IMG/VR virus record: IMGVR_UViG_2880361019_000002
Location: 1 to 42,237 of that record
Origin: a virus
Lineage: Duplodnaviria > Heunggongvirae > Uroviricota > Caudoviricetes
Strand: one strand, 5' to 3'
DNA: 42,237 nucleotides
Positions 31,345 to 34,314 of this stretch are shown here, piece after piece. The notes beneath the pieces were generated by a model. That model worked only from the letters and a program-made list of their open reading frames with translations. It had not been told where the DNA came from and searched no databases. Each line of letters opens with the position of its first letter. The stretch's first letter is position 1. A program made the position numbers and the translations under genes.

Positions 31345-31390
31345 TCGCTTTGTCAGCGACGTAGGACGAATGTCCATTGTGAAAAGAGCG
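31345..31390 (-). promoter_or_regulatory. Putative nutR (boxA CGCTCTTTT plus boxB hairpin TCGCT-GACAA-AGCGA)
   Basis: On the transcribed (minus) strand between cro and cII; the same hairpin core CGCTGACAAAGCG occurs upstream of N on the plus strand. Confidence 0.5.
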
Positions 31391-31397
31391 GTGTTAC

Positions 31398-31631
31398 TTA
31401 TGCAGCCGATGCTCTACGCGATACGAACACTAGGTTTTCCTTTTTCACAGGTTTATAACCCGTGAAATTACGAGTAGCTTCTTCGATTGCATTCGCTTTA
31501 TCAGGGGAAGCTCTTCGAAATCCATATGCAATCTGGTCAAGATAGCCAACTGAAGTTTTCGCTAATGCGGCGAGTCGCTTCCATTCCTCACTAGAAGCCT
31601 CTTTTCGCCAGCGTAGTAGTTCATTACTCAT
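31398..31631 (-). CDS. cro: Cro-like HTH repressor
   Basis: 77-aa ORF divergent from cI across the operator region. Confidence 0.6.
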   Translation of the reverse strand: MSNELLRWRKEASSEEWKRLAALAKTSVGYLDQIAYGFRRASPDKANAIEEATRNFTGYKPVKKENLVFVSRRASAA

Positions 31632-31635
31632 TAGT

Positions 31636-31744
31636 GCCTCCGTTTATCACACAGAACAACTTTACCATTTTGATAAATCATCCGCAATGTAAATTTATCA
31701 TATTGCGTATTTATCCATTTGCTAAATAGAGGGAAAATTGTGAG
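31636..31744. promoter_or_regulatory. Right operator/promoter region (OR, PR/PRM) between cro and cI
   Basis: Divergent genes 113 bp apart; four copies of half-site TTTATC/GATAAA (e.g. TTTTGATAAATCAT, AAATTTATCAT, GTATTTATCC). Confidence 0.6.
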
Positions 31745-32449
31745 ATGGAAAACAAAGATATTCGCAAATCGAATCTGGCGTTTTTGCTAGATGAGCATAA
31801 AAAAATCGCGGGTAACACTAATGCAAGCTTTGCCGATAAGCTTGGGGTTAGCCCTTCTCAACTCACGCAAGTCTCCGGTGAAAAAAGCACTCGAAACATA
31901 GGGGATAAACTAGCAAGAAAATTTGAAGCCGCGCTTGGGTTACCTAATGGGTGGCTTGATTTGGTACATGATGTAACACCAATTGCATCATGCTCAGATT
32001 CTTTAACTTTTGTCGGTCAGGTAAGAAAAGGGTTAGTGCGCGTGGTTGGTGAGGCAATTCTTGGTGTTGATGGTGCCATCGAGATGACCGAAGAGCGCGA
32101 TGGGTGGCTCAAAATTTATAGCGATGATCCAGATGCCTTTGGTCTTCGTGTGAAAGGAGACAGCATGTGGCCCAGAATAAAATCAGGAGAATATGTACTC
32201 ATTGAGCCTAACACCAAAGTATTCCCGGGTGATGAGGTGTTTGTCAGAACCGTTGAAGGACACAACATGATTAAGGTTCTTGGCTATGACAGAGATGGAG
32301 AATACCAATTTACAAGCATTAACCAGGATCACAGGCCTATAACGTTGCCTTATCATCAAGTAGCAAAGGTGGAGTATGTAGCTGGTATTCTGAAGCAATC
32401 TCGCCATCTGGATGACATCGAGGCAAGGGAGTGGCTGAAAAGTTCGTGA
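31745..32449 (+). CDS. cI: CI repressor (HTH plus LexA-like S24 peptidase domain)
   Basis: 234-aa ORF with N-terminal HTH and C-terminal autocleavage domain (GDSMWP...; Ser/Lys dyad context). Confidence 0.85.
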   Translation: MENKDIRKSNLAFLLDEHKKIAGNTNASFADKLGVSPSQLTQVSGEKSTRNIGDKLARKFEAALGLPNGWLDLVHDVTPIASCSDSLTFVGQVRKGLVRVVGEAILGVDGAIEMTEERDGWLKIYSDDPDAFGLRVKGDSMWPRIKSGEYVLIEPNTKVFPGDEVFVRTVEGHNMIKVLGYDRDGEYQFTSINQDHRPITLPYHQVAKVEYVAGILKQSRHLDDIEAREWLKSS

Positions 32450-32509
32450 CTTCATCGTCACATAGCTGGTAACCAGTGGCCAGAAGAAACGTTTGGGTGA
32501 GGAGGATAG

Positions 32510-32851
32510 ATGGCGTTCACTGACCTTGAATATCAAGCGGTCAAAAAAGAAGTTCACCAACTCATTGAAAGCATAAGGCCGCCTGAACATATCCGCAATG
32601 AACTGGATATTGTTTATAGCATCAATGACCAAACGATAGATATCGGCGAACAGCGCCCCGTGTGGCAGGGCAACCCAGGTGAAACAAACATCCTGCCATC
32701 AGCAAGAATCAAGTACATACGTTCTCTGGATAGATGGAAAATCTATTGGATGCGGAAGGATATGAAATGGCATCAGTACAGTACTGAACTTTCGCTGACT
32801 GATGCGCTTGAGCTTGTGCGTGCTGACCCGGATTGCTGCTTCTTCGGATGA
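32510..32851 (+). CDS. Hypothetical protein, first gene of cI-downstream cargo cassette
   Basis: 113-aa ORF with strong GAGGAGG RBS; co-directional with cI; no family recognised. Confidence 0.55.
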   Translation: MAFTDLEYQAVKKEVHQLIESIRPPEHIRNELDIVYSINDQTIDIGEQRPVWQGNPGETNILPSARIKYIRSLDRWKIYWMRKDMKWHQYSTELSLTDALELVRADPDCCFFG

Positions 32852-32867
32852 GTGAAGAGACGTTTGG

Positions 32868-33356
32868 ATGATGGATGATCGCAGAGATGCTCGTAGAGCA
32901 TACAGCGATGCAGGAGAATTTATGGCACTTAATTTAGAAAGAATATCTTTTATAACCCCATTTGATAGCAGCGAAGAACCCAACCAACCGACGCTTAATT
33001 TTACATGCAATGAATTTCCTGCGCGGCTATCAATTGATTTCAGGGTTGGTATGATCGGGTTGAAACCAAATTCAAGATATAATTTGGGTATTATGGTAAT
33101 CCCCGCGCACCTAATTATAAAAAAAGGTGAGGAAATTCAATTCCCTGACGGCTCTTCGGAATCAGTTTCACTTTTCATCGATACGAAAGATAGCCATTTT
33201 GAAACAGGGGTTGGCGGACAGGTAATAGTAACATTGAAAGAAATTAGGGTCCCAGCTAAAGGGCTGTATAGTGTTATAGGGATATTGCAAGATAATGAAG
33301 ACCCTAAAAATGAACTTCATAAAAATGAATCATTTTTCACCGTAGAGCTATTATGA
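32868..33356 (+). CDS. Hypothetical protein, second gene of cassette
   Basis: 162-aa ORF, lower GC than flanking lambda-like genes; no family recognised. Confidence 0.5.
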   Translation: MMDDRRDARRAYSDAGEFMALNLERISFITPFDSSEEPNQPTLNFTCNEFPARLSIDFRVGMIGLKPNSRYNLGIMVIPAHLIIKKGEEIQFPDGSSESVSLFIDTKDSHFETGVGGQVIVTLKEIRVPAKGLYSVIGILQDNEDPKNELHKNESFFTVELL

Positions 33357-33973
33357 GTGACGACAGTAATTTAAATAATCATGGAAAGCAAGACACCAAC
33401 ATATCTGAAAGCCGGAGGTTGAAGGTTGTTGGCGGTTCCGATTTTGAGGCTGAATTTGATAATTCTCCCACCAAGGTGCAAAATAATTACATAAAACCGC
33501 CACAAACGGAGGAAGAAGTGGGAACGATCAGCAGAGAGGAACTTGATGCTCGCTTAGCTGCTAATAAAGCAGAGATGGAGTCTATTGCTTCTTCCATTAG
33601 GGCTGACATGGCTCTATCTCGTGAAAGCGTTAATGTCCAATTTGCATCACTTAATGCAGCCATAAGCTCTCTATCGTCCAAGATCGATGGAAAGATGGAT
33701 AGCGCTGCTGGCGATATAAAAGCAATTAATGGGAGATTCGAAGGAATTCAAGGACAAATAACAGGGGTTAATACCGCAATTAGTGGTGTTCAGTCGGGTA
33801 TTTCTATACGATTAGCCATTTTTAGTGTCATTATCGCTGTAATAGTTGCGATTCCCGGGCTGGTATCAGCTTTAAAGTCAGACCACGCACCTTTGCAACA
33901 GCCTTCCACTTTGCAAGCGCCGCCACAAAATACCCAGCCAACAGACAACAAAAAAATCACTCCCCAGCATTAA
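33353..33973 (+). CDS. Hypothetical coiled-coil protein with C-terminal transmembrane anchor, third gene of cassette
   Basis: 206-aa ORF overlapping previous stop (ATGA); heptad-like Ser/Ala/Ile-rich repeats then LAIFSVIIAVIVAIPGLVSAL hydrophobic segment. Confidence 0.55.
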   Translation: MSDDSNLNNHGKQDTNISESRRLKVVGGSDFEAEFDNSPTKVQNNYIKPPQTEEEVGTISREELDARLAANKAEMESIASSIRADMALSRESVNVQFASLNAAISSLSSKIDGKMDSAAGDIKAINGRFEGIQGQITGVNTAISGVQSGISIRLAIFSVIIAVIVAIPGLVSALKSDHAPLQQPSTLQAPPQNTQPTDNKKITPQH

Positions 33974-33981
33974 CGCATTAA

Positions 33982-34008
33982 CCCGGCCTCAGCGCCGGGT
34001 TTTCTTTG
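33982..34008 (+). terminator. Intrinsic terminator after the cI cassette
   Basis: CCCGGC-CTCAGC-GCCGGG hairpin followed by TTTTCTTTG. Confidence 0.7.
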
Positions 34009-34104
34009 CCTCACGATCCCCACACCTAAAAACACATAACCAATTGTATTTGTTGAAAAATAAATAGATACAACTTGCTAAACAACGCAATCCAGATCTC
34101 CCTC

Positions 34105-34235
34105 AAATCTCTTTATTTATCCTGTCGAATTCCTACAACAAAATAAAACACCATAAGAATCAATACGATATTTGAAAACCAAGAGAATTTATCATTTTGC
34201 TATTGCCATTAATTTATCATTCAGATAAAGTTCAC
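34105..34235. promoter_or_regulatory. Left operator/promoter region (OL/PL)
   Basis: Same TTTATC half-sites as OR (TTTATTTATCC, GAATTTATCAT, TTTATCATTCAGATAAA palindrome) in AT-rich DNA upstream of N. Confidence 0.5.
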
Positions 34236-34299
34236 CCATCAGCAGGACGCACTACTCACCAGGGCGGTGAATATACAACGATTCGAATATGAATCTACG

Positions 34300-34314
34300 G
34301 CGCTGACAAAGCGC
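34300..34314 (+). promoter_or_regulatory. Putative nutL boxB hairpin
   Basis: GCGCT-GACAA-AGCGC stem-loop about 170 nt upstream of N start, same loop as the cro-cII hairpin. Confidence 0.45.

Follow-up and report, generated by a model that had tools for sequence, protein, structure and literature searches.

Organization of the Immunity and Early-Control Region

The stretch of viral DNA analyzed here, referred to as the window, is 42,237 bp long (IMG/VR record IMGVR_UViG_2880361019_000002) and contains a module with a cI repressor gene, two operator regions (OR and OL), two nut-type RNA sites (nutR and nutL), and an N-like antiterminator gene. The minus strand carries P-O-cII-cro, and the plus strand carries cI, three cargo open reading frames (ORFs), a terminator, and the N-like gene (Table 1). 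This gene order is that of lambda read backwards, such that the minus-strand nutR and the plus-strand nutL are both in the sense orientation. On the basis of sequence identity, the region is very probably the immunity and early-control module of the Shiga toxin (Stx) phage H-19B, carried by a related lambdoid prophage. In BLAST comparison with the H-19B record AF034975, positions 28941-32500 are 97.8% identical to the ren-P-O-cII-cro-cI segment and positions 33981-35898 are 95% identical to the OL-nutL-N-gp17 segment; the sole differing block is the cargo between cI and OL. The nut hairpins and operators are textbook elements of this characterized phage, and all of them are already known. The assignment draws on sequence identity with elements of H-19B and 933W, on predicted folds, on covariation and enrichment, and on where the elements lie with respect to the genes.

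The initial annotation had stated that cI is not the lambda allele, which proved correct: the CI protein matches H-19B CI at 234 of 234 residues, and the OR DNA matches H-19B OR at 113 of 113 positions. In Pfam, CI matches Peptidase_S24, and the protein combines the specific N-terminal DNA-binding domain of the H-19B allele with an S24 autocleavage domain, as expected for H-19B immunity. Its C-terminal domain is 95% identical to that of 933W CI and its N-terminal domain is unrelated, in agreement with a literature statement that the H-19B and 933W repressors share the C-terminal domain. We also sought intermediate relatives of the N-terminal domain among phage matches and found none: the sequences are either at least 95% identical (all but one at least 99%) or at most 51% identical, and thus provide no informative series for co-variation with the operators.

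Table 1. Coordinates of the control elements and genes of the module in the window.
Feature	Position	Strand	Basis
cII	30963-31259	-	
nutR boxB, sense UCGCU-GACAA-AGCGA	31345-31359	-	Identical to oligo RS664 "antisense to nutR boxB"; fold; covariation
nutR spacer hairpin, sense GGAC-AUUC-GUCC	31364-31375	-	Identical to oligo RS663 "antisense to nutR spacer of H-19B"
nutR boxA, sense CGCUCUUUU, DNA CGCTCTTTT	31382-31390	-	Matches oligo RS662 save one base; inside the 933W "nutR" annotation
cro, 77 aa, H-19B type	31398-31631	-	Length and position as in the H-19B record; inside the 97.8%-identical block
OR0, fourth (extra) operator, TTTATCACACAGAACAA	31643-31659		Exact GQ499358 match; 2 mismatches to TTTATC-N5-GATAAA
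PR (putative), TTGCGG (31687-31682), 17-nt spacer, TAAAGT (31664-31659), TG at extended -10	31659-31687	-	Analogy with PL
OR1, TTTACCATTTTGATAAA	31661-31677		Exact GQ499358 match; 1 mismatch to palindrome; overlaps putative PR -10
OR2 as annotated, AATGTAAATTTATCATA	31686-31702		Exact GQ499358 match
OR2, alternative register, TTTATCATATTGCGTAT	31694-31710		Better consensus fit by the C6/G12 rule; abuts OR3
OR3, TTTATCCATTTGCTAAA	31710-31726		Exact GQ499358 match; 1 mismatch to palindrome; adjoins cI start
cI repressor, H-19B allele, 234 aa, Peptidase_S24 C-terminal domain	31745-32449	+	234/234 identity; Pfam
Intrinsic terminator closing the cI (PRM) operon, upstream of OL	33980-34010	+	8-bp stem with 6 G-C pairs, then T run
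OL3, AGAATCAATACGATATT	34156-34172		Exact GQ499358 match; degenerate halves only (AATATC/GATTCT)
OL2, TTTATCATTTTGCTATT	34188-34204		Exact GQ499358 match
PL, TTGCCA-17-TAAAGT	34203-34231	+	Promoter scan; -35 overlaps OL2, -10 overlaps OL1
OL1, perfect palindrome TTTATC-ATTCA-GATAAA	34213-34229		0 mismatches; one base off GQ499358/H-19B OL1
nutL boxA-like element, CGCACUACU, weak	34248-34256	+	The 933W "nutL" annotation (L006:6010-6076) begins here
nutL spacer with two small hairpins (34256-34270, 34280-34295)	34256-34295	+	Minimum free energy and centroid folds; sequence conserved in all N-type relatives
nutL boxB, GCGCU-GACAA-AGCGC	34300-34314	+	Identical in P22 nutL, H-19B, 933W, AU5Stx1, mEp506, PhiR12_5
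N antiterminator gene, H-19B/933W type, frameshifted	34480-34861	+	Alignments; relatives match Pfam

The nut Sites

A hairpin core, CGCTGACAAAGCG, had been described in the initial annotation between cro and cII and again before N, in each case on the transcribed strand. The window indeed contains exactly two perfect copies of this 13-mer, both in the sense orientation: one at 31346-31358 (-), between cro and cII, and the other at 34301-34313 (+), 166 nt upstream of the N start codon (34480). With up to two mismatches allowed there are five matches compared with 1.09 expected, a number reached in 0 of 100 shuffles. Both hairpins fold into a 5-bp stem with a GACAA loop (-6.4 and -8.5 kcal/mol; z = -2.9 and -3.6, respectively). 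A comparison with the nut sites of H-19B and 933W, suggested together with the hairpins, identifies them as the boxB elements of H-19B/933W-type nutR and nutL, and the GenBank record of 933W annotates the same sequences as nutR (boxA through boxB) and nutL. All of the phages with this N type that were compared (H-19B, 933W, AU5Stx1, mEp506, and PhiR12_5) have the hairpin at both nut positions; its absence from such nut regions, which the initial annotation had named as a refutation, was thus not observed.

The other parts of a nut site were found as well. The boxA-like element reported to precede the minus-strand hairpin is present and lies 22 nt upstream (RNA sense) of boxB. It has one mismatch to the oligo RS662 ("antisense to nutR boxA of H-19B") and agrees with the first eight bases of P22 boxA (CGCUCUUUA). 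The RS662 mismatch is the single difference across 31320-31404, where 84 of 85 bases match the oligos RS662-RS665. The nutR spacer hairpin appears in both the minimum free energy and the centroid folds and has been conserved in two Salmonella phages, Oslo and S137. Two small spacer hairpins and a weak boxA-like element in nutL had gone unmentioned in the initial annotation, which had otherwise recognized both boxB hairpins and the nutR boxA; the nutL element may share the pattern CGC-CU--U(CAC) with the nutR boxA. Each boxB has a short G+C-rich stem and a G-N-R-N-A-type pentaloop on the transcribed strand, with boxA located 5' in the same transcript. One site lies between PL and N and the other between cro and cII, downstream of PR and upstream of tR1. 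Apart from the one boxA base, the nutR sequence is that of an experimentally studied site: H-19B nutR contains two hairpins, has served in N, NusA, and Rho footprinting and in antitermination assays by the Sen laboratory, and was shown to support N-dependent read-through (PMC3526286).

The boxB stem is also supported by covariation. When eight nut sites (those of the window, Oslo, S137, and P22) are aligned, 94.7% of the cells are paired compared with 21-42% when the 3' partner is slid, and two-sided changes occur in three of the five pairs. A U-A pair of the nutR stem is U-G in Oslo, and the nutL stem of this phage is rebuilt with compensatory changes. S137 has GAAA rather than GACAA loops in both boxB elements, and its N motif reads GSAAGRRRER(R) rather than GNSRSRRRER, which looks like N co-evolving with its RNA target. 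An Rfam scan of 30800-35000 (E ≤ 1) returned three sub-threshold, unrelated matches and no nut or boxB family.

Nut sites that are identical in other respects differ at position 5 of the nutR boxA (window position 31386): the form in the window, mEp506, and 14EC047 is CGCUCUUUU, and that in H-19B, 933W, AU5Stx1, and 2013C-3342 is CGCUAUUUU (in DNA letters, CGCTCTTTT and CGCTATTTT, respectively). The exact nutR 70-mer of the window occurs in 70 Escherichia coli records, and near-identical versions occur in 350. As a smaller second reading, the C variant, which is closer to the consensus, may restore the NusB/NusE dependence that is reportedly relaxed in H-19B. Between nutR and cII, in the nutR/tR1 region, there is also a dyad without a T run (UAUGCGU-UUCC-ACGCAUA, 31299-31316, minus strand), at whose place Oslo and S137 have other dyads.

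Operators and Early Promoters

The hexamer TTTATC/GATAAA had been reported to occur four times in OR and to recur in OL as an operator half-site. Our count gave four copies in the 113-bp OR (31643, 31672(-), 31694, and 31710) and four in the 136-bp OL (34116, 34188, 34213, and 34224(-)). A GenBank record for an "immunity region similar to H19-B" (GQ499358) annotates seven 17-bp repressor sites, OR0-OR3 and OL1-OL3. Six of these map exactly to the window and OL1 maps with a single spacer mismatch, giving four sites in OR and three in OL. From this mapping, six of the eight hexamers are half-sites in register. Of the other two, that at 31694 falls within the annotated OR2 in a different register, and that at 34116 is outside the annotated sites. 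The functional unit is the 17-bp pseudo-palindrome TTTATC-N5-GATAAA, mostly with only one consensus half. A review also states that H-19B OR holds four operators, and nothing further in support of a fourth OR operator was found in the literature. OR0 is positioned between the putative PR start and the cro ribosome-binding site.

In two cases, the register of the hexamers and the annotated sites differ. A third OR site was first placed at 31694-31710 by hexamer register, whereas GQ499358 has OR2 at 31686-31702, and both registers are kept in Table 1. A third OL site at 34116-34132, also in hexamer register, was dropped, as GQ499358 places OL3 at 34156-34172. For OL1, the half-sites are invariant among relatives, and variation was observed at spacer position 11 (window position 34223), which immediately precedes the right half-site; the window has A here, 2013C-3342 has T, and H-19B and others have C. 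This pattern is consistent with a spacer that makes no protein contact. Outside of this region, one operator-like sequence at 21781-21797 (TTTATCACAAGGATAAT) differs from the palindrome at a single position. It falls within a 223-aa ORF whose counterpart in the closest relative is the serine/threonine phosphatase gene adjacent to Q, and the likeness is probably due to chance.

The predicted early promoters would overlap these operators. PL, as found by the promoter scan, covers parts of OL1 and OL2, and there are two candidates for PR. The putative PR in Table 1 was derived from the geometry of PL, in which the -10 hexamer consists of the last four bases of the operator followed by GT. With this PR, OR1 would lie over the -10 hexamer, OR2 at the -35 hexamer, and OR0 over the start site. 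The terminator that closes the cI operon is at the same position as "tM" in the 933W record.

We infer repressor binding and antitermination in this copy from the lambda/H-19B paradigm. Dimers of CI would bind the four OR and three OL pseudo-palindromes and, as these would overlap the divergent PR and PL, keep both early operons off in the lysogen. After induction, the PL and PR transcripts would each carry a nut site composed of boxA, a structured spacer, and a boxB hairpin with its GACAA pentaloop. The arginine-rich N-terminus of an N protein would then bind boxB and, together with NusA and NusG, turn RNA polymerase termination-resistant, such that it could read through tR1, located between nutR and cII, and terminators further downstream.

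A Deletion in N and Alternative Explanations

An N-type gene was located downstream of the plus-strand hairpin, where the initial annotation had placed N, but it is not an intact ORF in the window. Compared with H-19B, 933W, AU5Stx1, mEp506, and the closest E. coli prophages, the window lacks "TC" between 34516 and 34517, inside the arginine-rich motif. The intact gene reads CGTTCTCGTCGT, and a genuine N-null allele would read CGTTCGTCGT; the product in the window, MTRRTQFKGNSRSSS, ends at a stop codon at 34525-34527, that is, after 15 codons and within the boxB-binding motif. Intact relatives of this N match the Pfam family N_peptide (PF25694) at 2e-15. An intact arginine-rich motif is thus not encoded downstream of nutL, and the failure is in this copy of N and not in the nut sequences. 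Unless the missing bases reflect an error of assembly, the nut sites have no matching N in cis. The immunity region had been called internally consistent; with N frameshifted, it is not fully so as a working system in this prophage.

This deletion is the basis of the most serious alternative, namely, that the module is a relic in which the operators and CI work but the N/nut arm is dead, and the hairpins no longer mark working early operons, which leaves a locked-in or defective prophage. In favor of a relic, the deletion interrupts the very motif that would bind boxB, and the closest relative prophage has frameshifted portal and tape-measure genes as well as an IS3 insertion, which indicates that decay is common in the lineage. 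Conversely, the deletion was found in 0 of the 414 E. coli complete-genome records that carry the matching segment, all of which differ from the window by exactly this gap. Also, it sits in a TCTCGTCGTCGT repeat, which makes an assembly or sequencing slip plausible, and the rest of the module is intact and identical or near-identical to that of functional phages. The deletion is either a private mutation or an assembly slip, and we consider the relic explanation to have a probability close to, but below, one half. Programmed frameshifting in N was rejected, as the deletion is absent from every other genome.

If the deletion is genuine, a tentative proposal is that the window represents a natural N-null prophage with H-19B immunity and perfect nut sites, operators, and CI. 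The intact nut sites of such a "locked" prophage, proficient in immunity but dead in antitermination, might still be supplied in trans by a co-resident 933W/H-19B-type Stx phage, whose N is identical. We put the likelihood of this reading at somewhat under one half.

Several other points weigh against a working H-19B-type module or against details of our map. In addition to the frameshift in N, which makes function in this prophage doubtful, the nutL boxA-like element is weak. The favored PR hexamers are below the threshold of the promoter scan, in which a rightward candidate over OR3/OR2 (TTAGCA-17-TATGAT, 31725-31697, minus strand) outscores them. The operator map relies on a GenBank annotation and a sentence in a review, and OR2 as annotated is out of the consensus register of the other six sites.

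The hexamers could alternatively be generic AT-rich promoter features, such as -10-like, UP-like, or host-protein sites, rather than CI half-sites. OR and OL are only 29-33% G+C, the hexamer occurs 54 times in the whole window compared with 21 expected, and the copies at 34116 and 31694 do not fit the annotated operators. However, when the AT-rich intergenic regions themselves were shuffled with dinucleotides preserved, only 0.18 (OR) and 0.30 (OL) copies were expected compared with the four observed in each, and at least four were reached in 1 of 5,000 shuffles each. The partner half is constrained as well: when every hexamer is read as the left half of a 17-mer, position 12, which mirrors C6, is G in all seven distinct sites but in only 8 of 46 background hexamers (Fisher's exact test, p = 4e-5). 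Together with the perfect 17-bp palindrome at OL1, the coincidence with the GQ499358 repressor sites, and the four OR operators reported for H-19B, these results make generic promoter features a highly improbable explanation. Even less credible is a chance origin of the hairpins as inverted repeats, or a role as terminators or RNA-processing sites without any relation to N: although they are short (5-bp stems) and match no Rfam family, there are two exact 13-mers where approximately none is expected, neither is followed by a T run, both occur where nutR and nutL are canonically placed, they have the same sequence as P22 boxB and as the H-19B nutR boxB that served in N footprinting, the stem covaries, and the loop changes along with the N motif in S137.

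Some further observations were made on the N region. In NZ_CP027766 and NZ_CP024155, the intact 127-aa N is left unannotated by RefSeq/PGAP, and only a 69-nt "regulator" or "antitermination protein" pseudogene fragment is listed; RefSeq annotation often omits this gene. The N leader (34320-34470) has a helix of approximately 19 bp, formed by 34325-34343 and the stretch just before the N Shine-Dalgarno sequence (z = -3.2 for the whole-leader fold). The helix arms are conserved in H-19B, PhiR12_5, Oslo, and S137, and the interior is replaced. In this arrangement, the helix is reminiscent of the RNase III site of the lambda N leader.

Comparison With Related Phages

The nutR/nutL sites and N of H-19B were reportedly described by Neely and Friedman in 2000 (Mol Microbiol 38:1074), its OR/OL operators and CI by Shi and Friedman in 2001 (Mol Microbiol 41:585), and the early region of 933W by Tyler, Mills, and Friedman in 2004. 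The window shares with H-19B the layout of boxA, long structured spacer, and boxB, and the N type. The nutR spacer, boxB, and downstream flank are identical, as are the nutL boxA-like element, spacer, and boxB. The differences are one boxA base (CGCUCUUUU in the window and CGCUAUUUU in H-19B), the frameshift in the window N, and the interior of the N leader, which follows the 933W version rather than that of H-19B. Apart from its deletion, the N gene nearly equals the 933W/AU5Stx1 allele, and the product of that allele departs from H-19B N at 3 of 127 residues. CI and OR are 100% identical between the window and H-19B, with the same four OR and three OL sites. The two differ at spacer position 11 of OL1, where the window has A and H-19B has C, and in the cargo that separates cI from OL.

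Relative to 933W (record AF125520; Plunkett 1999), the nutL, nutR, N, cII, O, and P are the same, as is the C-terminal domain of CI at the 95% identity given above. In contrast, the CI N-terminal domain and cro of 933W are different, as are its operators, which are 15 bp long and number three in OR; 933W is heteroimmune. More distantly, P22 shares the nutL boxB 15-mer (GCGCUGACAAAGCGC), the GACAA pentaloop in both of its boxB elements, and the start of boxA (CGCUCUUU). The N protein of P22 (gp24) has the same motif core, GNxxxRRxER (GNSRSRRRER in the H-19B type and GNAKTRRHER in P22), and a common C-terminal YAAGxRKSKQxTAR, but is otherwise divergent and has 100 aa rather than 127 aa. The GACAA pentaloop combined with GNxxxRRxER places the module in the P22 class of N-boxB recognition, with the motif intact only in the relatives and not in the N of the window. 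Also, the boxA-boxB spacer of P22 is short (10-11 nt) and unstructured, and its repressor (C2) and operators are unrelated.

The likeness to lambda is in organization, which includes the gene order, 17-bp pseudo-palindromic operators over divergent early promoters, early transcripts that each carry a boxA-boxB nut site, and a cI operon followed by a terminator. The window differs from lambda in its operator sequence, in having four rather than three OR sites, in the stem and loop of boxB, and in its much longer, structured nut spacer.

Other Contents of the Window

The segment between cI and OL (32510-33973) has three cargo ORFs in the position of rexAB. One encodes a DUF3024 protein (PADLOC candidate defense family PDC-S43, 1e-40), another a 162-aa protein without an assigned family, and the third a 206-aa protein whose sole Pfam match is weak and below threshold (Baculo_PEP_C). 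The contents of this slot vary among relatives: mEp506 has HicA/B/C, 933W has the stk kinase, and H-19B has other DNA. A promoter-like sequence at 30905-30933 (+; TTGAGT-17-CATAAT with TG) is followed by a strong terminator at 30987-31014 with a T run, both of them in antisense to the cII 3' end; the position and size of this unit (30905-31020) match the lambda oop RNA. Only one tRNA gene (anticodon CAT, 20679-20754) was found in 19500-21100, compared with three there in the closest relative. In the interval that separates the Q-like ORF from the lysis region, the window has no match to H-19B Q or stx1, and the prophage looks like an stx-less relative of the Stx phages.

Implications

The significance of these findings is mostly one of correct annotation, in that this prophage has H-19B immunity together with 933W/H-19B-type N-nut control. 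The prophage and H-19B-type Stx1 phages would therefore be homoimmune, and N could be shared between it and Stx phages. A genuine deletion in N would leave intact nut sites orphaned in cis; in that case, the prophage should fail in its delayed-early program and is predicted to be non-inducible.

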